From the IMG/VR virus record IMGVR_UViG_3300044641_004856, positions 1 to 64,000 of that record: a stretch of 64,000 nt of DNA, one strand, 5' to 3'. The notes beneath the pieces were generated by a model. That model was not told the origin of the DNA and made no database searches. It saw only the letters and a list, made by a program, of their open reading frames with translations. The position numbers were made by a program, and so were the translations under genes. This DNA comes from a virus. This document shows positions 7,525-27,990 of this stretch, one piece after another. Position 1 is the first letter of the stretch. Each line of letters begins with the position of its first letter.

Positions 7525-9123
7525 ATGTCTATTGATTTTAATGATGAGAAGTTTGAGGAAATTAATCCCGAACTTTACGCAGCAGAAGATGAAGAAGTTC
7601 CGCTACCCCCTGAAGAAAATGACTTAGATGAACTCTCGATTCAATTTGTTGAAAAACTAATAAATAAAATCTTAGAGTTTCAAGAAGTTCTTGTTGGGTA
7701 TCCTCTACACCCCTATCAACTTCCGTTAGCACGTCGTGTAATTGAGTCAGTTTTAATTAATGATGGTGAAGAAATTACAGCCCTTGCAGCACGTCAGTCA
7801 GGTAAATCTGAAACAGTTGCAAATACTGTTGCAACATTAATGATTCTTCTTCCACGTCTTGCAAAGTTATACCCAGATTTATTAGGTAAGTTTAAAGATG
7901 GACTTTGGGTTGGTTTGTTTGCACCAACAGAAGGTCAGGCAGAAACACTCTTTGGTCGTACTGTTACACGACTTACATCAGAGCGTGCATTAGAAATTCT
8001 TGGTGACCCTGAAATTGATGACTCTGCTGCACGTATTGGTGGAGTAACTCGAATGATTAAACTAAAGAAATCTGGCTCAACAATTACGATGATGACTGCA
8101 AACCCCCGTGCAAAAATTGAGTCTAAGTCTTTCCATTTGATTGTTATTGACGAGTGCCAAGAAGCAGATGACTTTGTTGTATCTAAGTCAATTTCCCCAA
8201 TGCTTGCTTACTATGCGGGAACTATGGTTAAAACAGGCACACCAACAACTAGCAAAAATAACTTTTATAGGGCTATTCAATTAAACAAGCGTCGTCAAAC
8301 AACTAGAGGTGCTAGACAAAACCATTTTCAATGGGACTGGAAAGATGTTGCTAAGTTTAATGAAAACTACTCCAAGTTTATAAAGAAAGAAACTTTGCGT
8401 ATTGGAGAAGATTCAGACGAGTTCCAAATGTCTTACAACTGCAAGTGGCTTCTTGAACGAGGTATGTTTGTAACTTCTGGAGTTATGGACGAACTAGGTG
8501 ATACTTCACAAGAACTAGTAAAGGTTTGGCACAAGACACCTGTGGTAGTTGGCATTGACCCTGCACGTAAGATGGACTCAACAGTTGTTACTGTTGTATG
8601 GGTTGACTGGGATAGGCCAGATGAGTTCGGTTATTTTGAACATCGAGTCTTAAACTGGCTGGAGTTACAGGGAGATGACTGGGAAGAACAGTACTTCCAA
8701 ATCGTTAACTTCTTAAGTAACTACGATGTTTTAGCAGTTGGTGTTGACGCTAATGGTGTTGGAGATGCTGTTGCACAGCGTCTTAGACTTTTATTGCCTA
8801 GAGCAGAAGTTGCTTCTATTACCTCTAGTGCTACTGAACAGTCACAAAGGTGGAAACACCTTCAAGCGTTAATCCAAAGAAAATTATTGGGTTACCCTGC
8901 CCACGCAAAAACACGTCGTTTAAGAACGTGGAAAAGGTTTTACCAACAGATGGTAGATGCTGAGGTTCAGTACAAGGGTCCTAACTTCCTTGTGGCTGCT
9001 CCTGATGAGTCTTACGCCCATGATGATTACGTTGATAGCCTCTCTATTGCCTGTGCTTTAACTAAGGACTTAGTTATGCCAGAGGTGGTTTTAACCAGTA
9101 GCCCGTTTTTCAGTAAAAATTAA
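7525..9123 (+). CDS. terL: Terminase large subunit
   Basis: Walker A ARQSGKS, Walker B IVIDECQ, TGT motif III, nuclease VGIDPA and HDDYVDS. Confidence 0.95.
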   Translation: MSIDFNDEKFEEINPELYAAEDEEVPLPPEENDLDELSIQFVEKLINKILEFQEVLVGYPLHPYQLPLARRVIESVLINDGEEITALAARQSGKSETVANTVATLMILLPRLAKLYPDLLGKFKDGLWVGLFAPTEGQAETLFGRTVTRLTSERALEILGDPEIDDSAARIGGVTRMIKLKKSGSTITMMTANPRAKIESKSFHLIVIDECQEADDFVVSKSISPMLAYYAGTMVKTGTPTTSKNNFYRAIQLNKRRQTTRGARQNHFQWDWKDVAKFNENYSKFIKKETLRIGEDSDEFQMSYNCKWLLERGMFVTSGVMDELGDTSQELVKVWHKTPVVVGIDPARKMDSTVVTVVWVDWDRPDEFGYFEHRVLNWLELQGDDWEEQYFQIVNFLSNYDVLAVGVDANGVGDAVAQRLRLLLPRAEVASITSSATEQSQRWKHLQALIQRKLLGYPAHAKTRRLRTWKRFYQQMVDAEVQYKGPNFLVAAPDESYAHDDYVDSLSIACALTKDLVMPEVVLTSSPFFSKN

Positions 9124-9967: not shown

Positions 9968-11707
9968 ATGAGTTTTGTTGACTTTTCTCCTCCCTCATAC
10001 AGAGCAGCCTCCTCTGATTTAACTATTTCAATTTCTCCACTTGGTTTAGTGGAACTAGCAGACGAAGAATTTGAAGTTCATGGTCCGCGTTTAAATCGCT
10101 ACTCTTTAAATTGGGCGATGTATTTAGGTCATCACTGGGGTTATCGCCGTGAACAAGGCGAAATGCAAATTGCAGTCAACTACTACAGAGCATTTACAGA
10201 CTATCTTTCTAGATTTACATTTGGCAAGGGAATTGGTTTCCGCAGCCCTAAAGCAACTGAAGCAATTGTTCCAGACCGTTTGCAACGAGTATGGGAAGTA
10301 GATAACGACAAAACTAGAGTTCTTTTAGAAATGGCACAACAAGGTGGAATCTCTGGAGATTGTTTTGTAAAAGTAGCCTATGAAGAACCGTGGACTGATG
10401 CAATTGGTCGAGTACACCCAGGAAAAGTTCGAGTTCTTCCTCTTAACTCCTCTTTCTCATTCCCAGAGTTTCATCCACACGACCGCAATCGTCTTTTAAG
10501 ATTTAAGCAGAAGTACCGTTTCTGGGGAACTTCTTTAGAGGGAACAAGACAGGTATTTACTTACACTGAGATTCTTACAGATGACCTTATTGAAGAATAC
10601 ATTAACGATGAACTTATTGACTCTCGTCCAAATCCCCTAGGAACAATTCCTGTTGTACATATTGCAAATATTCCTGTTGCTGGTTCTCCTTGGGGTTTAC
10701 CTGATTGCCATGACATTATCTCTATTAACCGTGCATACAATGAAATTTCAACAGATGTTGCAGACATTATTAACTACCACGCTGCACCTGTAACAGTTAT
10801 TGTTGGTGCAAAGGCTTCTAACCTTGAGAAGGGTCCCAAGAAAGTTTGGGGAGGTCTTCCTAAAGATTCACAGGTATTTAACCTAGAAGGTGGCGGAGCA
10901 GGAATCGAAGGTGCTCTAAAGTATCTTGAACTATTAAAGCGTTCTATGCACGAGTTAATGAACGTTCCAGAGACAGCACTGGGTCAAGTCCAACCAATTT
11001 CAAATACATCTGGTGTTGCACTTTCAATTCAGTATCAACCGCTTATGAATCGTTGGACTCAAAAGACGGCTCAGTATGGAATCGGCCTTGAGAAGATTAA
11101 TGAACTTATTATTTTAAACTTGGCAGTTAAAGAGCCAGAAACAATGATGTACAACCCAGATGAAGACGGTCCAATCAAAGAAGGTCAAATGGTTAAACTT
11201 GACCCTAACGACTCTCTTACCTATCAAAACAGCGTTCAGTTCCCACCTCCTCTTCCACTAGATAAGTTAATTATCCTTAACGAAGTACAAACTAAACTTG
11301 GCATGGGTCTTGAGTCTAAAGAAGGTGCTTTACGCACTTTGGGAGAAGAGTTCCCAGAAGAGAAACTACAAGAGATTCGTGAAGAACTTAAAGCGGAAGC
11401 ACTTTCAGATGGTGCTCTAACCTTGTTAAAGGTGCAGATTCAAAAAGAAATTCAAGATATGACTGGAATGATGCCAGGTCCTGGAGGAGATGGAGCAGTT
11501 CCACTGCAACCTACTCAACTAGGTGATGGCGACATTATGGGAGATAACCTCTCAGGTGCTCCAACCCCAGAAAATGCTGCCGACCCTGCTGCCCAAGAAA
11601 TGGCTATGACAGAGGCTAGTATGGAGATGGATATTCGGAACAAACTGCTGACCGAATCCTATGGAACGAAAATTCCACAGAGAAGAGCAGTAGATAGAAG
11701 TCAATAA
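9968..11707 (+). CDS. Portal protein (SPP1 gp6-like)
   Basis: 579 aa after terL; NPLGTIPVVH and NTSGVAL motifs. Confidence 0.9.
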   Translation: MSFVDFSPPSYRAASSDLTISISPLGLVELADEEFEVHGPRLNRYSLNWAMYLGHHWGYRREQGEMQIAVNYYRAFTDYLSRFTFGKGIGFRSPKATEAIVPDRLQRVWEVDNDKTRVLLEMAQQGGISGDCFVKVAYEEPWTDAIGRVHPGKVRVLPLNSSFSFPEFHPHDRNRLLRFKQKYRFWGTSLEGTRQVFTYTEILTDDLIEEYINDELIDSRPNPLGTIPVVHIANIPVAGSPWGLPDCHDIISINRAYNEISTDVADIINYHAAPVTVIVGAKASNLEKGPKKVWGGLPKDSQVFNLEGGGAGIEGALKYLELLKRSMHELMNVPETALGQVQPISNTSGVALSIQYQPLMNRWTQKTAQYGIGLEKINELIILNLAVKEPETMMYNPDEDGPIKEGQMVKLDPNDSLTYQNSVQFPPPLPLDKLIILNEVQTKLGMGLESKEGALRTLGEEFPEEKLQEIREELKAEALSDGALTLLKVQIQKEIQDMTGMMPGPGGDGAVPLQPTQLGDGDIMGDNLSGAPTPENAADPAAQEMAMTEASMEMDIRNKLLTESYGTKIPQRRAVDRSQ

Positions 11708-12646: not shown

Positions 12647-13771
12647 ATGGCATCAGCGATTACAGGCACCAGTGAATTAGCAGGAGCACCTACCGCATAT
12701 AGTGGTTCAAACTCCAGCCTATCCACAGCAATTCAGACCATCTGGTCTAAAGAAATTTTATTCCAAGCAATGCCAATTCTGCGTTTCGAGCAGTTTGCAG
12801 TTAAGAAGACTGAACTAGGTGTAGCACCTGGTCTTCGTGTGAACTTCCTACGTTACAAGAACTTTGCTGTAGACCCAGCACCACTTACAGAAGGTGTACG
12901 TCTAACAACAAACGCTCTTACAGCAGAACAAATTGCAATCACAGTTGCAGAACACGGCTACGCAGTAGCAGTTTCTGAACTACTTCTTAACGCATCATTC
13001 GATGACGTTATGGCATCATCTTCACGTCTTCTAGGTCGCCACATGGCACAGTACCTAGATGTACAGGCACGTAACACACTAGGTGCTGCAACATCTGCAG
13101 TATTTGGTTACGACCGTACAGGCGTATCAGCAGGGTCACAGTCATTCTACGACGAAGGCTCAAAGGCAACATCAATCTCAACCATCACAGCCAACCACAA
13201 GTTGACTACTGGTTCTGTCAAGGATGCTGCACTTACCCTTGCTTCAAAGAACATTCCTCGCTTAGGTGAGACATACGTAATGTTCATCAATCCAAAGCAG
13301 TCACGTGACATTCGTTCGAACCCAGAGTTCATCGAAGTTACAAAGTACGCTGCTCCAGGAAACTTCATGCTAGGTGAAATCGGTCGTCTATACGACGTAG
13401 TATTCATCGAAACAACTCAGGTTAAGTCATACGCATCAGGAGCAGTTGTTAACGAGACTGCAAACGTTGGTGCACCTGCTGACCAGACTGAAGTTCCAGT
13501 AAAGGCAAACACAAACCCAGGTTCAGGTGGAAACCCAACAGGTTCAACTTCACCAAACCCTGCTGGTTCATCTGCTGGCACTGCAGCAACAACTGTCTAC
13601 GAGTCAATCATGATTGGTGACAACGCATTCGGTCACGCAATTTCCCTTCCAGTTGAACTTCGCGATGGTGGCGTTCTTGACTTCGGTCGTGAGCACGCTC
13701 TTGCTTGGTACGCAATTTGGGGTCTTGGCGTAATCACAGACCAAGCAATTTGTAAGGTCTTCACCGCTTAA
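12647..13771 (+). CDS. Major capsid protein (N4-gp56 family)
   Basis: LRFEQFA, PLTEGV, GEIGRLYDVVFIET and DFGREHALAWY motifs; highly biased codons. Confidence 0.93.
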   Translation: MASAITGTSELAGAPTAYSGSNSSLSTAIQTIWSKEILFQAMPILRFEQFAVKKTELGVAPGLRVNFLRYKNFAVDPAPLTEGVRLTTNALTAEQIAITVAEHGYAVAVSELLLNASFDDVMASSSRLLGRHMAQYLDVQARNTLGAATSAVFGYDRTGVSAGSQSFYDEGSKATSISTITANHKLTTGSVKDAALTLASKNIPRLGETYVMFINPKQSRDIRSNPEFIEVTKYAAPGNFMLGEIGRLYDVVFIETTQVKSYASGAVVNETANVGAPADQTEVPVKANTNPGSGGNPTGSTSPNPAGSSAGTAATTVYESIMIGDNAFGHAISLPVELRDGGVLDFGREHALAWYAIWGLGVITDQAICKVFTA

Positions 13772-14375: not shown

Positions 14376-15431
14376 GTGGCAACAGCGTCTAACTTAGCCG
14401 AAATGGTTAGGTCCGAAATAGGAGACTCCTCTAAGTCTTTTGTTATGCAGTTTATTGCAGATGGTACAACAAATAGATTTGGTCTTCACTACTCTCCAGT
14501 AGATGCAGCAAGCCTGTACGTAAGATTTGATGATTCCAATGTTTCCAACGATGTTTCCGTAGAGGAAGCAACAGGAGTTTTAGTAACAGATGTGATTCCA
14601 CCAGATGGCACTGAAATCACAGTTGCTGGTAATTACTTTAGATACTTTACACCAGCAGAAATTAATCGCTTTGTAGAAAACGCTGTATTGCAGCATTCAA
14701 ATAATAGAACAGACTCTTTAGGAAGAATTCAAACTCTTGAAAATCTTCCTCCAGTAGAGGTTTATCCAGTATCTCTTCTTGCAAGCACACTTGCTCTTTA
14801 CACTTTAGCAACTGATGCTTCATTCGACATTAACGTCTTTGCTCCAGACGGTGTGACAATTCCACGTTCTGAGCGTTACCGTCAATTAATGGATATGATT
14901 CAAGCACGCAAAGACCAATACCGCGAACTATGTGTTCTGCTTGGTATCGGTATGTATCGTATTGAGGTATTTACATTCCGCAGAATTTCTAAGACAACAA
15001 ATCACTACGTACCAGTTTATCGACCACAGGAGGTGGATGATTACTCTTACCCAGAAAGAATCGAACTTGCCCGACCTACCTATGGCGACCAGCCCTCAGA
15101 ACGACCTTATGACTCTGTGGACCTTACTGCCTATCAAGATGTGGCGTTTACGTACTCTATTCCGTTCGTCGGAAGCCTCGTCACACGAGGAGTAGTAGCA
15201 AATATTCGTTGGAAAGCAGGAGTTTTACAAAGTCACATGCCGTTTACTGTGACAGTTACTACCTCTCCAACCGATAATACAAGCCATACGATTACTTTAA
15301 GTTTGACCAAGGACCAGACCAAAAGACTTGCACAGCGTATGTACTGGGACATCGAGTTAGTTAGTGATAACGGAACTCGAGAAACATACAAGGCTGGCAA
15401 ACTATTTACAGTGCGTGAGGTGACAACGTAA
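14376..15431 (+). CDS. Head-tail adaptor/neck protein with extra domains
   Basis: [12 protein letters not shown]-terminus and [14 protein letters not shown]; C-terminal BppU-like [10 protein letters not shown]...YWDIEL...[10 protein letters not shown]. Confidence 0.6.
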
Positions 15432-17575
15432 TGCCTATTGACCCAAATAGCCCTCTCTATCCAGAGATTGACCCTGCACTTTTACCTGGAGTTCCTACAA
15501 CTCGAGGACCTCGTGGTTATCAAGGACCAACAGGACCAACAGGTCCACAAGGTCCTGCAGGTTCTGCTTCTGCAACTGGTGCAACTGGTGCAACAGGAGC
15601 AACTGGTGCGACAGGTGCAACAGGACCACAAGGTCCTACTGGTGCAGTTGGTCCACAAGGTTTAACTGGATTTACTGGTCCACAAGGTGCAACTGGTCCT
15701 ACTGGTGCTGACTCTCTTGTAACTGGTCCTACTGGTGCTGCAGGAGCAACAGGACCTACTGGTGCGATGGGTTCTACTGGTGCTACAGGTGCAATGGGTG
15801 CGACAGGACCAACAGGTCAACAAGGTATTCAAGGTCCACAAGGTATTCAAGGTGTAACTGGTCCGACTGGTGCATCTGGTGTTGCTGGTAATACAGGAGC
15901 AACTGGACCAACTGGTTCACAAGGTATTCAAGGACCAACAGGACCTACTGGTGCTACTGGTGCTGCTTCAACAGTAACTGGACCTACAGGTCCGACTGGT
16001 GCACAAGGTGCACTTGGTTTTACTGGACCTACAGGTTCTACTGGACCTACAGGACCAACAGGTGCTGCTTCAACAGTTACAGGACCTACAGGTAACACAG
16101 GACCTACAGGACCTACAGGACCTACTGGTGCACAAGGAACTGCTGTAACAATTAAGGGTGAGTATGCCGATGAAGCAACTTTACTTGCTGCTCGTCCTAC
16201 AGGAAATTTTGGCGATGCTTATTTAATCGCAAGTGGTGATTTGTATGTTTGGACTCCAAACTCAACTCCACCAAACTTTGGTACATGGAATAACGTTGGA
16301 AACATTCAAGGACCAACAGGACCTCGAGGTTTTACTGGACCAACTGGTGCTGAAGGTGCTGCTTCAACAGTAACTGGACCAACAGGTTCTACTGGTCCTA
16401 CAGGAGCCACTGGTGCTACTGGTGCTGCTTCAACCGTAACTGGTCCTACAGGTGCAACAGGTCCTACTGGTGCAACTGGTCCTACTGGTGCTACTGGTGC
16501 TGCTTCAACCGTAACTGGTCCTACAGGTTCTACTGGACCAACAGGAGCAACTGGTGCAGCCTCAACTGTTACTGGTCCAACAGGTGCTACTGGACCAACA
16601 GGTCCAACTGGAGCAACTGGTCAAGATGGTACATCTATTAACCTTAAGGGAACTGTTGCAGCAGTTGAGAATCTTCCTGCAACAGGAAATACAAATGGTG
16701 ATGCTTACCTTGTAACTGCAACAGGAAATATTTGGATTTGGTCAGGAAGTGCTTGGACAGATGGTGGACCATTCCGTGGTCCAACTGGTGCGACTGGACC
16801 TACTGGTCCAACTGGAGCCACTGGTGCTGCCTCTACTGTTACAGGACCGACTGGTGCTACAGGACCTACTGGTGCTACTGGACCAACAGGTGCACAAGGC
16901 CCAACAGGTGCACGTAACGGAACAACCTTTAAGATTACAAATAATGGTGCGGGAACACAATTTTTAGTTGAAGGTATTCCAGGAGACACACCAACACTTG
17001 ATGTTGTTCGTGGAGAAACTTACTACTTTGATTTAAGTGCTGTGCCTATTACAGACTCTTTCACAATTCGCTTTAACTTAACAGATACTGCAAACCCAAT
17101 TCCTGGAATGGTTGGAAACAACATTTCTACAGGAGCCTACGGTGGCAGTACTCCAAACATTATTACCTACACAGTTCCTCTTGATGCTCCAGCAAACTTA
17201 GTTTACCGAAGCGTTCAAGATGCAACTCAAGTTGGTGTCATTGCTATCTATGATAAGCGTGGTCCTACAGGACCTACTGGTCCACAGGGTGTAACTGGTC
17301 CTACGGGTGCAGCATCAACCGTTACGGGTCCTACGGGTCCTACAGGTCCTACTGGTCCTACTGGTCCTGTTGGTCAATTCACTGCCTCAGAAAGTGCTCC
17401 TACTGTTGAAAGTGCAGAAGCAGGTGATGCTTGGTTTAACACTCAAAATGCAAAAACTTACGTATTCTTTAATAATGCGTGGGTAGAGGTTGCTTCAGGA
17501 AACCTTGGTCCTACTGGTCCACAAGGACAGGCTGGTTCATTAGCACTATCTACAATGTGGTGGTTAGGAGCATGA
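15431..17575 (+). CDS. Collagen-like fibre protein (GPT/GAT repeats)
   Basis: Long Gly-X-Thr runs broken by two GDAYL..TG.L..W knobs and a cupredoxin-like domain; TAATG coupling to the adaptor gene. Confidence 0.85.
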
Positions 17576-17648: not shown

Positions 17649-20354
17649 ATGCCTGGTTTTCTTGGTGGTAGTAGTGGAGGAAGTACAAGTTCTTCTGGTG
17701 TAGGCGGAGAAATCCAATTCCCATCGCAGTTTATTGACCCAGTAACTAAACTCCGTGTTTCACAACCTGAAACACTGATTGATACTGACTTTGAATATGG
17801 TCTACAGCCTACTAAGTGGGAAACTGTTGAACTTATTAACAACACTCCATCGTTCTTCTCAAAGAGCGGTGATACAACTATTCCTAACATTTCATCGATT
17901 TTATCTACAGAGCAATCTCGAGAAATTAAAGTTATTACCTCTCTTGCTCATGGACTTGCTGTTGGTATTCCTATCAACGTTGCTGGAACAAAGTCACTTA
18001 CAGCAAATGGTTCTTTCATTATTAACTCTGTCCCAACACCAACATCTTTTACTTATCTATGTAAGCAAAACCAAGCACAAACTGCTTCTATTGAAGACCT
18101 TTACACATCTGTTATTACAGGCGAGTTTTTCCAAGGTTCTCAGATTAGAATTTCAGACTCTGAAGGTATTAAAACAGATGCTGGAACTATCTCTACCCTT
18201 ACAGTTAAGACAGACAGCCCACATGGTTTTGGTTTAAACACTCCGTTTTACTTCCTTAACCTAAACTCTTCTATTTCTCAAGAGTTTGACTCATCTAATA
18301 CAACTGGTAAGTCTTTCGATGCTTCTAACTCATCTACTGCACAAACATTTGACGGCTCAAACACCTTAAACTACTTACCTATTAATGTCGATAACAAGGC
18401 AAGTACTGGAAATATTACAAGCAGTATTCTCTCTGTTGATACATCACAAGATACAATTACCGTCTCACACCAGACTGGCGAAACATTTGTAAACGCTGTT
18501 ATTGGAACTCCTCTTTACTACAACGTAGTTGCGGGTTCAGGTTACTTCTTTACCAATCCTCGCGGAGTTGTTTTTGTAAAATCAACAGGCACTCTCAGTG
18601 CGTCAACTGCTACATTTTCCGTAAGTGAGATTCCAAACGGAACTACTATTGACATTGTTGGTTCAATGACAGGAACTTTTCAATTAGCAAACCTTGCAAA
18701 AACATTTGCTGGAAATAACCAAGGATTAGAAGCACCTGTTACAGTCCAACTTGGAGACCCAAAGTCATTTGATGGTGCAAACACTGCGGGTGGCTCTGGA
18801 ACTATTTCATCATTTAGCGGTTCTTTGGTGAGTATGCTTTCCGACTCTGGAATCTCAGACCTTGATTGGTATAACGGCACTATGGTGCAGTACACCACAA
18901 CAGGAAATGCTGCTACAGGTTTGACAGCAAATGGAACTTACTTTATTGACACATTCTTCTTTAACAATACTCCTGGTCAATATTTCTTTACACTAAAGAA
19001 CTTACCAGGAACAGCAGGAAGCCCTATCACCTCCATGTCAGGTGGAACTGGAACTCAGAAGTTTAGACAAATTGGTGTTTCAGCAGACCTTGACATTGTT
19101 CACGTAAAAAATAATGGCTTTGTTGATAAGCAGATGATTAAATACACTTATCCATCAGGTGGTCGTTTTTCTACTCCAGGTACTGAAGCAAAAGATTTCT
19201 ACTTTGTGACTAATAAATACGATGACCACAACTTTAAGATGAATCACTTGTTGGCATCTATTCTTCCTCTTACTGCCTCAATTACTGGAGAAGCGGTAAC
19301 TAACAATATTGTTGCTGGTTCTCAGCAGACATTGACTGCTCAAGGATATACAGGGGCAGTGTCTTACACTATTTCCCCAGCATTGCCTTCAGGTTTAACA
19401 ATGAGCACATCTACAGGATTAATTAGCGGAACTCCTACTGGTGCTTACGCAATTACGCACACAATTACAGGAACAGACTCATCTGGTGCTCAAGCATTCC
19501 AGACAGTTAACATCAACTTTACTGCTCCGCCTCCACAGGGACAGACTCTTTACTCTTCCCCTGGAACATACACATTTACTGTCCCTGCCCGTACATCAAC
19601 GCTTTCTGCAGTTGCTATTGGCGGTGGCGGTGGCGGTTCTTACGTATGGTCTCGTGGTCCTGGCGGTGGCGGTGGTCTTGCTTGGGCAAGAGATATTGCT
19701 GTAACTCCAGGTGAAACATTTACAGTTGTAGTCGGTCGTGGCGGTAACATGTGGAGTTACTGGAGTGGTGATGGCTATGGGGATAACTCTTACCTACAAC
19801 GTAACTCTGGCGGTCAAATAATTTGTCGTGGTTACGGCTCTGGTCGTGGTGGTCCAAACTCTAACGGCGGAGCATCAGGTGGTTTTGATTACACTGGAAC
19901 TGGTGGTGGCGGTCGTGGTGGTTACACTAACTGGGAATGGAGTTACTCTGGTGCTGGTGCTGGCGGTTATGAGGGTCGTGGTGGTGAAGGCAGTTACGGT
20001 TATAACCCAGGTTATGGTGGTGGCGGTGCTGCTGGTACTACTTACTCCTCAACATGGGGAACTCCAGGTGGTGGAGGAACAGGAATTAATGGTCAAGGTG
20101 CTGACGGCGTAGGTCGCGGTTCAGGCGTAGGCGGTGGAGGCGGTTCTGGCGGTCAAAACGGCCAAAATGGTGAGCCTTACTACTCCTATTCACGTGGTCA
20201 TATTTACGGCGGTCAATACGGTGGCGGTGCTGGCGGTTCTGGCTCACAGTGGTACGGTGGCGGAAACGGCGGAGTTGGTGGAGTTCGTATTATTTGGGGA
20301 CCAAACCGCTTCTACCCAGCAACCAATACCCAAGACGTTACACCAACAAGTTAA
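17649..20354 (+). CDS. Modular virion fibre protein, part 1 (repeat modules, putative Ig domain, Gly-rich domain)
   Basis: KLRVSQPETLIDTDFEYG N-terminus; LPSGLTMSTSTGLISGTPT Ig motif; GGGGG-rich C-terminus ending GGVRIIWG. Confidence 0.75.
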   Translation: MPGFLGGSSGGSTSSSGVGGEIQFPSQFIDPVTKLRVSQPETLIDTDFEYGLQPTKWETVELINNTPSFFSKSGDTTIPNISSILSTEQSREIKVITSLAHGLAVGIPINVAGTKSLTANGSFIINSVPTPTSFTYLCKQNQAQTASIEDLYTSVITGEFFQGSQIRISDSEGIKTDAGTISTLTVKTDSPHGFGLNTPFYFLNLNSSISQEFDSSNTTGKSFDASNSSTAQTFDGSNTLNYLPINVDNKASTGNITSSILSVDTSQDTITVSHQTGETFVNAVIGTPLYYNVVAGSGYFFTNPRGVVFVKSTGTLSASTATFSVSEIPNGTTIDIVGSMTGTFQLANLAKTFAGNNQGLEAPVTVQLGDPKSFDGANTAGGSGTISSFSGSLVSMLSDSGISDLDWYNGTMVQYTTTGNAATGLTANGTYFIDTFFFNNTPGQYFFTLKNLPGTAGSPITSMSGGTGTQKFRQIGVSADLDIVHVKNNGFVDKQMIKYTYPSGGRFSTPGTEAKDFYFVTNKYDDHNFKMNHLLASILPLTASITGEAVTNNIVAGSQQTLTAQGYTGAVSYTISPALPSGLTMSTSTGLISGTPTGAYAITHTITGTDSSGAQAFQTVNINFTAPPPQGQTLYSSPGTYTFTVPARTSTLSAVAIGGGGGGSYVWSRGPGGGGGLAWARDIAVTPGETFTVVVGRGGNMWSYWSGDGYGDNSYLQRNSGGQIICRGYGSGRGGPNSNGGASGGFDYTGTGGGGRGGYTNWEWSYSGAGAGGYEGRGGEGSYGYNPGYGGGGAAGTTYSSTWGTPGGGGTGINGQGADGVGRGSGVGGGGGSGGQNGQNGEPYYSYSRGHIYGGQYGGGAGGSGSQWYGGGNGGVGGVRIIWGPNRFYPATNTQDVTPTS

Positions 20355-20367
20355 GGAGTGAGTAGAT

Positions 20368-23300
20368 ATGCCAATTAATATTACCGCAGCAGGTTTAACA
20401 GGAACTCATACCTTTACACCTACAAACATCAACACTGCTGACTACTACCTTTACTACCCAACCAATACGCTTGGTCAACCAACTATTCCTGAAGCACTTA
20501 GAGATGGTTCTGCCTTTATTTACAATACTGGTCTAGGAACAATTAATGGGCTTAGTGATAGCAGTTTGTATTACATCAAGCGTGTTGGAACTGCTCAAGT
20601 ATTTTTTAGCACAACTGCAGGTGGTTCTGATGTAGCACTAACAACTCCTACTGCAGGAACTGCGTTTTTTAATGCTCCTTATGTATACCAAAATAAACTT
20701 TCTATTGAGGCAACTCTTTCAGATAACCAAGCGGTTCGTTATGTAACAGATGGAACAGCAATTGGTGGGCTTACAAAAAACAACGTTTACTTTATTAAGA
20801 CCTCAAACACAGGTTTTGGTACAGCAAATGCTCTCTACACATTCTCCTCATTTATCTTTACAACTGCTGGAACTACTGGAAACGTAGGACCATCAATTTC
20901 AACTATTAAAGCGCACTCTAGTTATAGTGCTGCTTCTTGGAAGACAGACTACCTACAAGCAGGTAACTTCCAAGGTTATCAAGACTGGACAGTTCCAACC
21001 TCTGGTACCTACACATTTAACGTTCGTGGTGCTGCAGGTCTTAATGGTTCTGGTTCTGGTGCTGCAGGTCGTGGTGCGATTGTTCAAGGAAGAGTCTTCC
21101 TGCAAAAGGGAGAAGTCATTACTATTGTAGTTGGACAACGCGGAACTGCTGCTCGTTCTGGTTCAACTTACGGTGGTTCAGGTGGTGGTTCTTGGGTTGT
21201 TCGTAAATCAGGAAACGTCCCTCTTTTTGTGGCGGGTGGAGGTTCTGCAGATGCAGATACTACTAACGGTCGAGATGGTGCTCTTACAACTGCTGGTGGT
21301 CAATCTTCTGCTAGTGCTGATGGTGGCTCAAATGGTAATGGTTCAGTTGCAACTGGAGGTAACTCTGGTGGTGGCGGTGGTTTTTCTACCGATGGTTCTA
21401 ACGCAACTAACGGTGTTAAGGGCGGTGGCTCTTTTGCTACAGGTTTAACAACAACTGGTGGAGGAACTGTTGGTGGATTTGGTGGATTTGGTGGCGGTGC
21501 ATCTGCTGACGGAGACACAACTGGTCAATCTGGTGGTGGCGGTGGCTACTCTGGTGGTGCTGGTGCTCGCTCTAATGCTGCACGTGTTGCAGGCGGTGGC
21601 GGTGGTTCATTCATCGTAACTTCAGCAACAAACGTTGCAACCTCAACTGGTTCTTTCAACGGCTCAACATCTTGGGGAACAGAAACAATTACAAACCTCA
21701 ACTCTTGGAATGCTGATGCTGATGGTCAAGTAACAGTAACTTTAGTTGCTGCTGCTGCTGCAACAGTTACTTTGCACCCAACTGCAGTTGATGCAAATGA
21801 CGGAACAAACGGAATTACTTTAACTGCTGGGGGAAGCAAGTATCACGCTTTAGTTCCTCTACAGGTAGACTTAGTAAGTAATACTTTTTACTCACCATCT
21901 TTGCATGGTTTGAGTAACGGTGAAGCAGTTAAGTTTGTTACCAATGGAACTACTCCTGGTGGCATCACTGCAAACACAGCGACTTACTACGTCAATAAAG
22001 TTGACAATTATTCTTATAAATTAAGTACAACTCCGTCTCCATCATTTACTGATGTTGATGTGACAAGCCCTGGTGCTGCAAGTATTGAGCGTTTTGACAA
22101 AATTATTGTTAATACTGCAACCAATACGATTACTATTAACAACCACGGTTTCTTGGCTAATCAGCCTGTTAAGTATGCAGTCAATGGTGGAACTGTTATT
22201 TCTCCACTTGTTGATGGTGCTACTTACTACGTAAAGACAGTAGTAGATGCAAACCGCATTATCCTAAGCCAATCTTTGAATGGCCCAGATTTAGATTTAA
22301 CATCTGCAGGAACTGGAACTGGACACTCCTTTATCTTCGTTACAGTTAACGTTGAAGAAGACAGCCTTTACATTCCACAGCACGACCTATCAACTGGTCA
22401 AAGAGTTGTTTACTCAAGTGGTGCTGGAACAGTAATTGGCGGGCTTACAAACGGTGCTGCTTACTTCGTATTTAGAGTAGATGCCAACATTATCAAGTTG
22501 TCTACTGTTAAAACAGGAGCAGCGATTGTTAACCTAACAGGTCTAGGTACAGGAACTCACACTCTGACTGTTAACTCAGTTGATTTGACTACTGAAACAA
22601 TCACAATTCCAAACCACGGATTTACTACAGGTGAACTTGTATCTTACGATACAGCAGGACAAACACCACTAACAGGACTTGTTTCTGGTTCTCCTTACTA
22701 TGTAATTGCACCAAATGGTGATGAAATTAAGTTGGCAACAACTTATGACAACGCTATTAATGGAACAGCGATTAACTTAACAGGTGTTGGAGTTGGAAAG
22801 CACAGACTTTACTCACTCATCCGTACACCAGATGGTATCTACACAGTAGATGCAATTCCATCTACAACAACCTTTAATGTTAAAGCAAATGGTCTTGTAC
22901 CACTTATTATTAAAGAGTTTGTTCCTCGTTCTACTGTAGATACACAACAGAACGTATTTAAGATTCTAGGTCACGGTTTTATTACTGGAACCAAGGTTGC
23001 CTATAATTCAGGTGGAGGTTCATCAATTGGTGGACTTACTTCAGGAACTGACTACTATGTAATTAACGTAAATAAGGATTACATTAAACTGGCTTCTTCT
23101 GCAGATAATGCAATTTCTGGTACCCCTATTACTATCTCTGACTTTGGTTCTGGAAACAGCCACCACTTTACATCTGCCCAGATTAACGGACAGATTGTTG
23201 GTGCAGGTACAGTTTCTACTGAATCAGGCTCCGTATTGGTAGCAGGTTCTGGAACAGCCTTTGCTAAGATTCTAAAGGTGGGAGACAAGTTCCGCGTATT

Positions 23301-25962
23301 CCCATCCAATACAAACAAGTCCAACACCTTTGCAAGTGCTGCCTTTAATGCATCAACTAACGTTATTACAATCACTAGCCATGGATATTTAACTGGTGAC
23401 GTTGTTACTTACACAGCAGGAGCAGGTGGTGTTGCACCAACTGGTCTTGTTACAACATATAACTACTATGTTCGTCGTATTGATGCATCAAGCATTACCC
23501 TTCACAACACTTTAACTGATGCAACAAACAATACAAACCAGGTTGACTTTACAAACCAAGGAACTGGTTCTGCCCACAACCTAATTAACGTAGTTCCAAG
23601 AACTCCGATTATTAGAACAATTACTGCTATTGGTTCTGACACTCAGATTACAATTGACAGACCTTATAGCGAGGCTTACACAGGAGTTTCATACTCTTAC
23701 CCAACATTTATCTATGTTCGTCCTGAAGGATACTCTCTACACAGACCATTTGATGGTGGTGTGGAAATGTCCACAGGTGTAGGAACATCCTTCTCTCAGA
23801 TTGTTCGTCAGACTCGTAAGTACTTCCGTTACCAGTCAGGTAAAGGTATTCAGGTATCGTTTGCTATTAACTTTAAACCATCAATTGACCTTGAAACACT
23901 AACTAAGATTAGTGCGACAACTATTCAAGGTAAGACTCGTCGTCCACACGGCTTGTTAAATGGTCTTACAGTTGCAATTAAGGATGCTCTAAAGCCAGAC
24001 GGCACGATGAGCACTGTCTACAACGGTCTGTTCCAAATCTCCGTATTAGACCCTTACACCTTTACCTACATCTCTCCTGCAGCAATTCCTGCGGGTCAAG
24101 AAAAGTCTTATGGCTTTGCACACCTCTATGTAAACGCATGGCAAAATGGTGCTGTTCGTTCAGGTATGTTTGACTTCCAGAACGGTATGTACTTTGAGTT
24201 TGATGGACAGAAGATTTATGCAGTGCGTCGTTCTTCTACCCAACAGATTGCTGGAGTTGCTGCAGCACAACAAGGTTCTGAACTAGTATTTGGAACTGGA
24301 ACAGCATTTACCTCTCAACTAGCAGCAGGTGACATGATTGTTATGCGTGGTCAGTCTTACAAGGTTGCTAATGTTACAAGTGACACTCAAATTACTATTA
24401 AGCCTGAGTACAAAGGTGCATCAGGACCTATAAAAGAGTTTAATCCGCAAACAGTTGTTAATGCTACTGCTGACACCTTCACTATCTTAGGTCACGGTTT
24501 TGTTGAAAACCTTGCTGTTACCTACGACTCAATTGACGGCGTTCCAGTCGGAGGTCTTATCAACGGACGTACTTACTACATTAAAGTTATAGACAATAAT
24601 ACCTTTAAGTTAATGGGTACACCAAACTCTGTTTCAACGGTAGCACTTGCTGATACAGGTTCAGGAACTCTGCACTCATTCCAGCCTTCAAAGGCAGGTA
24701 TTATTATTACTAAGACTATCGATACAAGAGTTCCACAAGAGTCTTGGAATATCGATGTCTGCGATGGAACTGGCCCAACAGGTTATGTTCTTGACCTAGC
24801 AAAGATTCAAATGGCTTACATTGATTACTCTTGGTACGGTGCAGGAAAGATTCGTTTTGGATTTAAAGATGCAACAGGAACAGTCAAGTATGTTCACGAA
24901 TTTAAGCACAACAACGTGTTGTATGAGTCATACCTACGTTCAGGTAACTTGCCTGCACGTTATGAAGTAACCACTCTTTCTAACCCAACATACATCCCTT
25001 ACCTATTCCACTGGGGTACTTCGGTTATCATGGATGGTCGCTTTGATGATGACAAGGCATACCTCTTTACAGGAACTAGCCAGACGCTACAGATTCTTGG
25101 TACTACAGCCAAGTCATTTGGTTCAAGGGCTATTAACGTTTCAACTAACCGCGTTAACATCCCAACACACGGTTTCTCTAGCGGAGATGCTGTGACATTC
25201 CAGGGCTTTACCTCAGCAGGTATTGCTGGTGTAGTAAGTCAGAACCCAGGAACTGTAAACAACGTAGGCCATCCGTTCTCTCAAATGCAGAATCAACGGA
25301 CCTACTATGTTTGCCGTCAAGATGCTGACAACATTACCTTCCACAATACTCAAGCAGATGCTATTGCAACGTCTGGTACTTCACCAAACATTGTTCTTGG
25401 CACAAATCCTATTGATATTACTACTACAGGTAACACTCAGTACACCTTCTTTATCTACCCACTAGGTGCTGCAAATAACACCTCTGGTATTAACTACCAG
25501 CCACTTCTATCAATTCGCCTCTCTCCTTCAGTATCTGAAGGTTTGACAGGTAAGTTGGGTGACCGTGACGTTATTAACCGCATGCAGTTGACTATGAGTG
25601 AAATTGGTATCCAAACAACTCAGTTGGTGGATGTTAAGTTACTTCTCAACGGACGTTTGAACAACTTGAACTTCCAAGGAGTGCCACAGCCTTCTCTAAC
25701 TCAGACAATTCAACACACATCAAATGACACTATCTCTGGTGGTGTTCAGGTTTACAACTTCCGTGCATCAGGTGGTGCTTCAGGTAGTGAGAACTCAACT
25801 ACAGTTGATATTAGTGAGTTGTTCGAACTTTCAAACTCTATTCTAGGAGGAGACTCCGTGTACCCAGATGGTCCAGACATTCTAACGATTGCTGTGGCTC
25901 GTCTAACAGGTAACACCACTCTAACTTCTGCTAAATTATCATGGCGAGAAGCACAAGCCTAA
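20368..25962 (+). CDS. Giant modular virion fibre protein, part 2 (1864 aa)
   Basis: About 10 HGF.TG..V.Y...GGL..G..YYV modules; Gly-rich domain; RQTRKYFRYQSGKG / IDYSWYGAG / GNLPARYEV core. Confidence 0.8.
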   Translation: MPINITAAGLTGTHTFTPTNINTADYYLYYPTNTLGQPTIPEALRDGSAFIYNTGLGTINGLSDSSLYYIKRVGTAQVFFSTTAGGSDVALTTPTAGTAFFNAPYVYQNKLSIEATLSDNQAVRYVTDGTAIGGLTKNNVYFIKTSNTGFGTANALYTFSSFIFTTAGTTGNVGPSISTIKAHSSYSAASWKTDYLQAGNFQGYQDWTVPTSGTYTFNVRGAAGLNGSGSGAAGRGAIVQGRVFLQKGEVITIVVGQRGTAARSGSTYGGSGGGSWVVRKSGNVPLFVAGGGSADADTTNGRDGALTTAGGQSSASADGGSNGNGSVATGGNSGGGGGFSTDGSNATNGVKGGGSFATGLTTTGGGTVGGFGGFGGGASADGDTTGQSGGGGGYSGGAGARSNAARVAGGGGGSFIVTSATNVATSTGSFNGSTSWGTETITNLNSWNADADGQVTVTLVAAAAATVTLHPTAVDANDGTNGITLTAGGSKYHALVPLQVDLVSNTFYSPSLHGLSNGEAVKFVTNGTTPGGITANTATYYVNKVDNYSYKLSTTPSPSFTDVDVTSPGAASIERFDKIIVNTATNTITINNHGFLANQPVKYAVNGGTVISPLVDGATYYVKTVVDANRIILSQSLNGPDLDLTSAGTGTGHSFIFVTVNVEEDSLYIPQHDLSTGQRVVYSSGAGTVIGGLTNGAAYFVFRVDANIIKLSTVKTGAAIVNLTGLGTGTHTLTVNSVDLTTETITIPNHGFTTGELVSYDTAGQTPLTGLVSGSPYYVIAPNGDEIKLATTYDNAINGTAINLTGVGVGKHRLYSLIRTPDGIYTVDAIPSTTTFNVKANGLVPLIIKEFVPRSTVDTQQNVFKILGHGFITGTKVAYNSGGGSSIGGLTSGTDYYVINVNKDYIKLASSADNAISGTPITISDFGSGNSHHFTSAQINGQIVGAGTVSTESGSVLVAGSGTAFAKILKVGDKFRVFPSNTNKSNTFASAAFNASTNVITITSHGYLTGDVVTYTAGAGGVAPTGLVTTYNYYVRRIDASSITLHNTLTDATNNTNQVDFTNQGTGSAHNLINVVPRTPIIRTITAIGSDTQITIDRPYSEAYTGVSYSYPTFIYVRPEGYSLHRPFDGGVEMSTGVGTSFSQIVRQTRKYFRYQSGKGIQVSFAINFKPSIDLETLTKISATTIQGKTRRPHGLLNGLTVAIKDALKPDGTMSTVYNGLFQISVLDPYTFTYISPAAIPAGQEKSYGFAHLYVNAWQNGAVRSGMFDFQNGMYFEFDGQKIYAVRRSSTQQIAGVAAAQQGSELVFGTGTAFTSQLAAGDMIVMRGQSYKVANVTSDTQITIKPEYKGASGPIKEFNPQTVVNATADTFTILGHGFVENLAVTYDSIDGVPVGGLINGRTYYIKVIDNNTFKLMGTPNSVSTVALADTGSGTLHSFQPSKAGIIITKTIDTRVPQESWNIDVCDGTGPTGYVLDLAKIQMAYIDYSWYGAGKIRFGFKDATGTVKYVHEFKHNNVLYESYLRSGNLPARYEVTTLSNPTYIPYLFHWGTSVIMDGRFDDDKAYLFTGTSQTLQILGTTAKSFGSRAINVSTNRVNIPTHGFSSGDAVTFQGFTSAGIAGVVSQNPGTVNNVGHPFSQMQNQRTYYVCRQDADNITFHNTQADAIATSGTSPNIVLGTNPIDITTTGNTQYTFFIYPLGAANNTSGINYQPLLSIRLSPSVSEGLTGKLGDRDVINRMQLTMSEIGIQTTQLVDVKLLLNGRLNNLNFQGVPQPSLTQTIQHTSNDTISGGVQVYNFRASGGASGSENSTTVDISELFELSNSILGGDSVYPDGPDILTIAVARLTGNTTLTSAKLSWREAQA

Positions 25963-25974
25963 AAAGGAGCACAA

Positions 25975-26511
25975 ATGGCAATTATCAGACTGGGGGTTGT
26001 TAACCCTTCTGCAAACGTGGCGACTATTGCGTCCACGGTGGCTAACTCCCACCTTGTTTCCGTGATTATTGCTAACAGGTCTCTAAATGCTTCGCCTGTA
26101 ATGAAAGCAAACGTGTGGGTTGCTCCTCAAGGGGCTACCACTGTTTCTCAATACGCCTACGTCTGTGCTAACTTAATTGTTGGCCCAGGGCAATCTTTTG
26201 AAACATTTAGGTTTGCACTAAATGCAAACGATGTGCTTTATGTTTCATCAAATACTGATGATGCCTCCTTCTCTGTTTATGGACTTCTGCAATCAGAAGA
26301 TGTTGGTCCTGGAGATGCTTTCCAAACATTTAGAAACAAAACAATTCGCGGTAATGCAAACGTTATTTATGTAGACAAGGGCACAACTGCTCAACGTGAT
26401 AACACTACAGAGGTTGGGTATATTAGGTTTAATACCGATTTGAATAATGGCGAAGGAGCACTAGAAGTGAAGACAACAACTGGTTGGAAAACAGTAGGGT
26501 GGGATGCATAA
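25975..26511 (+). CDS. Virion structural protein, paralogous to the N-terminus of the next gene
   Basis: Shares [14 protein letters not shown] with 26512; GTTAQR...GYIRFNTD motif. Confidence 0.7.
   Translation: MAIIRLGVVNPSANVATIASTVANSHLVSVIIANRSLNASPVMKANVWVAPQGATTVSQYAYVCANLIVGPGQSFETFRFALNANDVLYVSSNTDDASFSVYGLLQSEDVGPGDAFQTFRNKTIRGNANVIYVDKGTTAQRDNTTEVGYIRFNTDLNNGEGALEVKTTTGWKTVGWDA

Positions 26512-27990
<1,479 letters not shown>

Follow-up and report, generated by a model that had tools for sequence, protein, structure and literature searches.

In the long tail fibre of phage T4, one long fibre is built from consecutive, side-by-side gene products (gp34-gp35-gp36-gp37). In chaperone-usher pili, an incomplete beta domain is completed by the N-terminal extension of the next subunit, and the polypeptides are joined as a fibre. 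A further point of reference is phrog_5838, a cyanophage 'virion structural protein' family (annotated T4-GC_863) whose single-gene members include proteins of S-BM3 (2087 aa, SBM3_00190), a podovirus (1736 aa) and S-RSM4 (1108 aa, SRSM4_036, recorded as similar to an S-PM2 structural protein). Here we describe a pair of adjacent genes, both matching this family, in the window, that is, the whole 64,000-nucleotide stretch of viral DNA analysed. Gene 1 aligns through aa 28-91 with profile positions 102-162 (E 3e-21) and gene 2 through aa 872-1352 with positions 137-557 (E 2.4e-122). The features of the pair are as follows.

17649..20354, + strand: gene 1, a 901 aa ORF with translation
17709..17933, + strand: conserved N-terminal family segment of gene 1 (aa 21-95; DPVTKLRVSQPETLIDTDFEYGLQPTKWE); tblastn to cyanophage single-chain proteins, covering ~aa 21-200
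18846..19064, + strand: penultimate gene 1 module (aa 400-472), complete, with its own terminal ITSMSGGTGTQKF piece; module HMM positions 14-77 of 81
19068..19268, + strand: truncated last module of gene 1 (aa 474-540); module HMM positions 4-60 of 81, or 1-54 or 1-57 of 78
19293..19520, + strand: He_PIG Ig-like domain in the gene 1 tail (aa 549-624); Pfam PF05345, E 2.1e-8, 34.9 bits against a cut-off of 24
19521..20351, + strand: glycine-rich C-terminal tail of gene 1; phrog_4474 (aa 573-898), E 9e-45
20352..20367, + strand: stop codon TAA (20352-20354), GGAG ribosome-binding site (20355-20358) and a 9-nt spacer, followed by the gene 2 ATG (20368)
20368..25962, + strand: gene 2, an 1864 aa ORF with translation
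20368..20415, + strand: gene 2 N-terminal peptide (N-peptide) MPINITAAGLTGTHTF, corresponding to the last two strands absent from the truncated gene 1 module; proposed donor strands
20845..21741, + strand: ALK/LTK-like glycine-rich domain (aa ~160-458) in a repeat-module loop; Pfam PF12810 at aa 211-458, E 2.1e-8, 34.9 bits against a cut-off of 24.5
21859..23583, + strand: array of canonical ~80-aa modules (aa 498-1072) ending ...IKL...INLT..G.GTH.F; six to seven full-length HMM matches of 97-111 bits
23680..25959, + strand: C-terminal family core (aa 1105-1864; HRPFDGG, RQTRKYFRYQSGKG, DYSWYGAG, ...SWREAQA); tblastn to cyanophage virion structural proteins and alignment A4
24448..24681, + strand: stand-alone module within the core (aa 1361-1438); rows of alignment A4

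Gene 1 thus runs from the N-terminal family segment, with KLRVSQPETLID at ~aa 34, through beta domains, one complete and one truncated module and the Ig domain to the glycine-rich tail; its close homologues carry a precomputed PF21722 match. Gene 2 opens with the N-peptide and continues with the module array, in which the ALK-like glycine-rich domain is nested; its C-terminal family core shows 90 or more invariant columns across the 47 cores of alignment A4.

The initial annotation stated that the motifs at the two ends of this pair usually occur in one polypeptide, and the wider family bears this out: 118 of 120 long metagenome homologues carry the N-terminal motif and the core motif in one chain, separated by ~130 to >2500 aa in single-chain homologues. 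Fused homologues covering both genes were recovered not only as the S-BM3, S-RSM4 and podovirus proteins but also at loci L050-L083, where the complete ORFs are single chains of 1550-2260 aa, except for the frameshift-like L051. Shorter single-chain homologues, of ~1100 aa, are encoded at loci L094-L173. The N-terminal family segment, which shares a chain with the core in these fused homologues, lies in gene 1 of the window (DTDFEYG...TKWE), and the core motifs (YFRYQSGKG, DYSWYGAG, W.E.QA) lie in gene 2, so that no single polypeptide holds both. The same split is found in Actinomycetia phage DSL-LC01 (824 + 2853 aa, 13-nt gap), whose homologue of gene 2 is 54.6% identical over 92% query coverage. 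It recurs in 38 related viral contigs, mostly from different metagenomes and 50-98% identical, with -1 to 49 nt between the genes, every frame relation represented and, in three contigs, an extra ORF of 119-124 aa between both genes. The split clade appears to be common in freshwater viral metagenomes. As proposed at first annotation, the comparison supports gene fission of a protein that is one chain elsewhere, with the break conserved across the clade. A close fused relative of the split clade was also sought, and the search returned only family-level fused proteins. Two candidates for that role were rejected: P0218 has a gene-1-like N-terminus followed by repeats that are not orthologous, and P0129 proved to be a gene 1 with a long tail. 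A literature search turned up no account of this split, and the DSL-LC01 paper (PMC10611076) does not discuss these two genes.

A single gene interrupted by an assembly or sequencing error would yield a similar picture, and error-like breaks do occur in the related contigs L011 and L051, where the family gene lies in ORFs overlapping by 14 and 28 nt; these two were rejected as parallel splits because overlapping ORFs are what a frameshift gives. For the pair described here, an error is hardly credible, as the stop, ribosome-binding site, ATG and first residues recur in DSL-LC01 and the 38 contigs. Gene 1 also recurs at a consistent size: among its 973 homologues at E<=1e-5, the 120 best-scoring protein clusters are nearly all 800-1050 aa long, with one 561-aa partial.

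The narrow junction raises a second possibility, that the two ORFs are joined in translation into one polypeptide by programmed frameshifting or read-through. The two genes lie only 13 nt apart, with gene 2 in the +1 frame relative to gene 1. We regard it as very improbable, since relatives combine their variable gaps with three frame relations and with extra in-frame stops or the inserted ORF, and share no slippery sequence. The gap itself contains the GGAG, placed 9 nt upstream of a conserved ATG, and GGAG or AGGAG immediately follows the gene 1 stop in most relatives as well. Judged from this arrangement, gene 2 is translated separately.

The position of the break was defined with a module HMM seeded on six canonical gene 2 repeats and refined with 214 modules. 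The last module of gene 1 (NNGFVDKQMIKY...YFVTNKYDDHNFKM) retains four of six strand motifs (ITI, V.Y, YYV, IKL) and lacks INLT and G.G.H.F, in agreement with the earlier reading that its usual ending is missing; coverage of the model stops at position 54 of 78, and the HMM matches end at one common point across all gene 1 homologues. The first 16 residues of gene 2 correspond to the rest of the 78-position model, so that the claim that gene 2 opens with exactly the missing piece also held. Joining gene 2 aa 2-19 to the last gene 1 repeat raised the score from 25.8 to 35.6 bits (+9.8) and extended coverage from 1-54 to 1-78 of 78, above all 200 shuffled-peptide controls (mean 26.4, maximum 32.2 bits). 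In unrelated module arrays, the N-peptide aligns to the ends of complete modules, after ...IKL.... The stand-alone module in the core is informative about unit boundaries: it is present in all four other split-lineage rows printed from A4, whereas the nine fused-lineage rows printed show a clean ~89-column gap at its site, and since it runs through to G.G..H.F, one module unit ends with that piece. These sequence comparisons support a break inside one repeat unit that behaves as a single structural domain, and the best explanation puts the break point within a loop of the ~80-aa module, after strand motif four and before strand motif five.

Structural and profile searches gave limited matches for the module and the core. 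The module model (mean pLDDT 60) returned weak matches to SH3-like, FCCH-like and other small barrels (Z 3-4.5), with UBA1 FCCH chains at Z 3.5-4.1 among many SH3-like matches and no pilin fold among the structural matches listed. Pfam E1_FCCH (PF16190) scored 28.1 bits against gene 2 aa 1363-1418, just under its cut-off of 29.5. Sequence and profile searches of the core against the PDB yielded, as sole match, the N-terminus of the F2-pyocin side fibre (64 residues, E 1.8e-6), and a search of the ESM Atlas returned only viral 'hypothetical protein' clusters. The searches thus yielded no solved structure with which the module or the core could be compared.

Beyond the truncated module, the gene 1 tails vary among relatives, comprising an Ig domain with an ALK-like glycine-rich domain, Gly_rich_2 alone, or an unnamed domain that is fibrinogen-like by eye. 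In relative L012, the gene 1 tail adopts, in the predicted model, the ALK/LTK TG-GRD fold (Z 27.5, rmsd 2.9 over 264 residues against human ALK GRD), and the Ig domain is similar in fold to domains of SraP and cadherins (Z 9-10.7). A free C-terminus with a swappable tip had been suggested for gene 1, and the differing tail domains support that suggestion; the tail is exchangeable and resembles a binding domain. The glycine-rich domain of gene 2, matched by PDB ALK chains at E 5e-11, is by contrast nested: the module resumes at VTLHPTAVDANDGTNGITLTAGGSKYHAL after it, and in every gene 2 homologue the module is cut at this site, at HMM position ~44, and followed by ~355 aa.

Because gene 2 begins with exactly the missing strands, the two chains probably rejoin. 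The peptide is strongly conserved: gene 2 starts with M[PA]I[ND][IV]T..G..GTH.[FL] in all 38 split loci, mean column identity is 0.74 for aa 1-16 versus 0.53 for aa 25-100, and G9, G12 and H14 are invariant across 33 sequences. The first barrel of gene 2 spans aa ~24-106, which makes the N-peptide surplus to that barrel. When gene 2 aa 1-165 were folded alone with AlphaFold2, the peptide was a coil (pLDDT 49-51). In a natural read-through chain from L012 (about 61% identical), which carries the last gene 1 modules and the tail, AlphaFold2 placed peptide strands at residues 557-559 and 567-570 (pLDDT 60-80), with the gain in confidence extending over the whole N-terminal region of gene 2, peptide included. 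In this model the peptide may instead lie on the Ig or the glycine-rich domain; the match lists from Foldseek and VIA searches with it were taken up by those two domains and were uninformative on the modules.

Covariation did not add to this picture. Mutual information between the N-peptide and the last gene 1 module was not above background in 34 pairs, the top pair, T13 with M496, being single and anecdotal, and mean-field DCA on 214 modules (effective number 127) gave noise, mostly in gap columns. Strand donation at the module junction, as initially proposed, receives indirect support from the conserved peptide, from the lack of an anchor domain of gene 2's own and from the coil-versus-strand contrast; covariation stayed at background. 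The null result would also fit a real fission without strand-donation reassembly, in which the products are independent virion proteins and the N-peptide has another role, for example as adaptor to some other part of the virion, as assembly signal or as a cap for the first module of gene 2. Consistent with such independence, the truncated module was confidently predicted (pLDDT 77-91 over residues 81-140 of the L012 read-through model), though the one chain in which this was seen included the peptide as well. Yet gene 2 lacks any other anchor at its N-terminus and completes its first barrel without the peptide, the peptide is disordered when the gene 2 N-terminus is folded alone, and it keeps the terminal motif of the module exactly in 38 of 38 loci; on balance we consider independent proteins unlikely, if still a serious alternative.

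Our preferred reading, which we hold to be reasonably probable, is that the two genes encode halves of an ancestral phrog_5838 virion fibre protein that was split once, the chains being rejoined by the N-peptide in the gene 1 module. The comparisons above show the fission and its conservation, the position of the break within a module, the exchange of tails and the separate translation of gene 2. On this reading the ancestral giant fibre gene broke once, in a freshwater phage clade related to DSL-LC01. Gene 1 kept the N-terminal segment with a short length of stalk and, from the broken module, four of six strands, followed by a tail and a stop, and gene 2 starts with the two missing strands and continues into the remaining stalk and the C-terminal core. 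The rejoining is inferred: by analogy with donor strands elsewhere, the N-peptide would insert into the open gene 1 module, joining both chains as one fibre, with the gene 1 tail projecting where they meet, as a tip or a side branch. A more specific formulation, for which the evidence seems to us evenly poised, is a split-domain joint that arose by a single ancient fission within a small beta-barrel repeat, with two donor strands supplied by the downstream protein and a C-terminal socket for exchangeable binding domains, converting a linear fibre into a branched one.

How the far ends of the chains are arranged bears on a further variant with two junctions, proposed in the initial annotation, in which the N-terminal segment of gene 1 packs onto the gene 2 core and closes a ring, with the stalk looped. 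Conservation within the family is highest in the N-terminal segment and in the core, and these two occur together in one chain in the 118 of 120 long homologues noted above. The usual plan, a linear fibre with an N-terminal anchor, a stalk and a distal C-terminal core, fits these observations equally well, and we think ring closure rather doubtful.

If strand donation is true, the pair represents a split-domain connector that evolved naturally within a virion fibre, for which intact ancestor-like forms still exist for comparison with the split fibre. It would then illustrate one route by which a loop-inserted domain becomes a free, swappable tip without loss of the fibre, and would provide a compact pair of a 16-residue peptide and a barrel usable for protein joining. 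The metagenomic 'hypothetical proteins' of ~900 aa and of ~1900-2900 aa, which number in the hundreds, are, on the preferred reading, two halves of one structure and should accordingly be annotated jointly.

Among described systems, the cyanophage phrog_5838 family shares the N-terminal segment and the core motifs ending in W.E.QA, with repeat modules between them. It differs in being one chain, whereas the window and the DSL-LC01-like clade have two genes, and in the ~100-aa extra N-terminal domain of its fused forms, which neither gene 1 nor any other part of the window encodes. The resemblance to chaperone-usher pili would be one of mechanism and is offered as an analogy only: the last gene 1 module, judged by sequence, likewise lacks its C-terminal strands (HMM 1-54 of 78), and the N-peptide, which matches the missing HMM positions, would fill the vacancy. 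The pilus domain, however, is an Ig fold missing one strand, whereas the present module gives weak SH3-like barrel matches and misses two; pili build a polymer, whereas here two different proteins are predicted to be joined once. A scan of ten neighbouring proteins revealed neither a chaperone nor an usher. The ALK/LTK glycine-rich (TG) domain PF12810, shared by gene 2 and the L012 gene 1 tail, occurs here as a phage virion module, nested once in a repeat loop and, in relatives, forming a free tail at the fission point. As in the T4 long tail fibre, adjacent genes would encode one long fibre; here, however, the break maps to a precise intradomain point, and it can be placed within a single repeat domain because relatives without the break are known and both domain halves are recognisable in the two genes.

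The window covers a structural region of a phage, in which gene 1 and gene 2, the putative halves of one giant virion fibre protein, are arranged as follows.

Features of the structural region
7525–9123, large terminase
9968–11707, portal
12647–13771, major head protein
15431–17575, collagen-like fibre
17649–20354, + strand, gene 1, 901 aa
20368–25962, + strand, gene 2, 1864 aa
20845–21741, ALK-like glycine-rich domain within gene 2 (aa ~160–458), flanked by module halves at aa 106–158 and 459–495
26512–27990, collagen-like fibre

Gene 1 closes with TAA (20352–20354), directly followed by GGAG (20355–20358), and the ATG of gene 2, which is read in frame +1, lies 9 nt downstream. The motifs quoted in the initial annotation were all found in the two translations. 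Immediately 3′ of gene 2, the ORFs at 25975–26511 and 26512–27990 have in common an N-terminal domain of ~110 aa (MAI.RL..NP.AN...SVIIAN...), a sequence pattern suggesting that two distinct fibres attach through a shared domain.

Both products match phrog_5838 (‘virion structural protein’), at profile positions 102–162 for gene 1 (aa 28–91) and 137–557 for gene 2 (aa 872–1352); the family is known so far only as an unnamed virion structural protein. Fused, single-chain homologues, as noted in the initial annotation, proved numerous. In tblastn searches of phage genomes, matches to gene 1 aa ~21–200 and gene 2 aa ~1115–1864 adjoin in cyanomyoviruses, and records hold single genes in S-BM3 (2087 aa), S-RSM4 (1108 aa) and a 39.9-kb podovirus (1736 aa). 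Among the 120 best matches to proteins of 1578–4505 aa in a large protein collection, 118 combine in one chain the N-terminal motif with a motif of the core, the C-terminal family region of gene 2. Gene 1-type proteins numbered 973 at E≤1e-5, the best 120 of which are nearly all 800–1050 aa long, with one 561-aa partial. Where fused homologues carry a ~100-aa N-terminal domain (YTFDASA...LQIFI), encoded nowhere in the window, gene 1 has a Gly/Ser-rich stretch (aa 1–20, 17649–17710). Neither the module nor the core is represented among solved structures. A core segment of ~64 residues (approximately 24240–24430; core profile positions 187–250; GS..V.G.GT.F...L..GD.I..RGQSY.V..I.SDT) matches the N-terminus of the F2-pyocin side fibre (25ve_A, E 1.8e-6) and, weakly, a distal tail protein.

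A module HMM, seeded with six canonical repeats from gene 2 and then refined with 214 modules, defined six conserved strand motifs: ITI, V.Y, YYV, IKL, INLT and G.G.H.F. The last repeat of gene 1 ends after IKL (HMM positions 1–54 to 1–60), as do the last-module matches of nearly all gene 1 homologues, longer alignments entering the tail. The INLT and G.G.H.F pieces form the first 16 residues of gene 2 (hereafter, the peptide), and a complete module comes next. Joining the peptide to the last gene 1 repeat by script raised the score from 25.8 to 35.6 bits with full HMM coverage, against a maximum of 32.2 bits for shuffled peptides (n=200). With the repeats in tandem, an independent guide to their phase was needed. 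The split-clade core contains a stand-alone module (24448–24681; gene 2 aa 1361–1438) running from the ITI strand to ...GSGTLHSF, which is absent, as a clean gap, from all nine fused-lineage cores inspected; in unrelated giant module proteins, the gene 2 N-terminus aligns with module ends after ...IKL.... Together, these fix the phase and place the break inside a unit rather than between units, bearing out the proposed mid-domain split. Long tandem arrays of the ~80-aa module occur in P0271 (4645 aa), P0289 (7951 aa) and P0288 (1133 aa), proteins that have neither the family N-terminal segment nor the core.

The closest phage, Actinomycetia phage DSL-LC01, carries counterparts of both genes (824 and 2853 aa; gap 13 nt), with the gene 2 N-terminus MPINITALGGAGTHTL. 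Among 80 related viral contigs, the split was present in all those with at least 50% identity in which both genes were readable. In these, gene 1 spans about 810–1540 aa where complete and lacks the core, while gene 2 (1860–2900 aa) contains it and begins M[PA]I[ND][IV]T..G..GTH.[FL]..[TV]NVN. Distant contigs (L050–L083) encode one ORF of 1550–2260 aa where the gene is complete, the exception being the frameshift-like L051. The two genes are separated by −1 to 49 nt, in every frame relation and often with extra stops, and three contigs (L021:12851–13207, L043:12534–12905 and L031) carry a 119–124-aa ORF between them. This variation rules out assembly error as the cause, and likewise argues against recoding that would join the two ORFs. 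The fission reading is secure: the break is genuine, ancient and confined to one clade. In contrast, the family gene in L011:12073–17677 and L051:1745–7437 is broken into ORFs that overlap (14 and 28 nt, respectively) and lack a stop–RBS–start layout; these were rejected as further fissions and are probably sequencing frameshifts or pseudogenes. We found no account of the split in the literature searched, which included the DSL-LC01 paper (PMC10611076).

Module loops accept insertions. Every gene 2 homologue has an ALK-like glycine-rich domain (~355 aa) nested in one module between its YYV and IKL strands, and some, including those of relatives with the fibrinogen-like gene 1 tail, carry a further ~750-aa domain array in the same loop of another module. 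The fission may represent a further event of this kind at the IKL/INLT loop, in which a stop, RBS and start would have taken the place of the return link. The proposal of a swappable tip is supported by several distinct gene 1 tails after the break: a He_PIG Ig plus glycine-rich domain in the window and most relatives; Gly_rich_2 alone, repeated in some; and, in the DSL-LC01 type, an unnamed domain that is fibrinogen-like by eye, with only a sub-threshold Pfam COLFI match. The tail of L012, a related contig, superposes on the human ALK GRD (Z 27.5). As for the module itself, gene 2 aa 1–165, modelled with low confidence, has the first barrel at aa ~24–106 and weakly matches small barrels (SH3, FeoA, KOW, E1 FCCH domain; Z 3–4.5), a lead rather than proof that the module fold is a small barrel.

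In L012, the two genes share a reading frame, and reading the stops as glycine yields a natural single chain comprising the last two gene 1 modules, the tail, a 16-residue spacer and gene 2 aa 1–165. AlphaFold2 modelled this chain with a mean pLDDT of 76.8 (checked alignment A2, 54 rows), the peptide (residues 553–568) reaching about 60–80 with strands at 557–559 and 567–570, whereas in gene 2 aa 1–165 alone (A3, 33 rows) aa 1–26 had pLDDT 49–51 and no secondary structure. The peptide is thus ordered only when the gene 1 C-terminal half is present, the gain in confidence extending to the whole gene 2 N-terminal region. Conservation is 0.74 in the peptide versus 0.53 in the next 75 residues, with G9, G12 and H14 invariant; the first barrel is complete without the peptide, and no further anchor is present at the gene 2 N-terminus. 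In 34 pairs, no covariation was detected between the peptide and the last gene 1 module. Of the earlier proposal that the split chains rejoin by strand donation at two junctions, the fission stands, and donation at the module joint, the peptide entering the open gene 1 module, is somewhat favoured by predicted order and conservation, with covariation adding nothing. For the second junction, between the gene 1 N-terminal segment and the gene 2 core, a linear fibre of anchor, stalk and distal core is the simpler reading. In a linear fibre, gene 2 would be held on the virion through the module joint. The proposed mechanism resembles the donor-strand complementation of pili, but fold and context differ, making this an analogy rather than membership.
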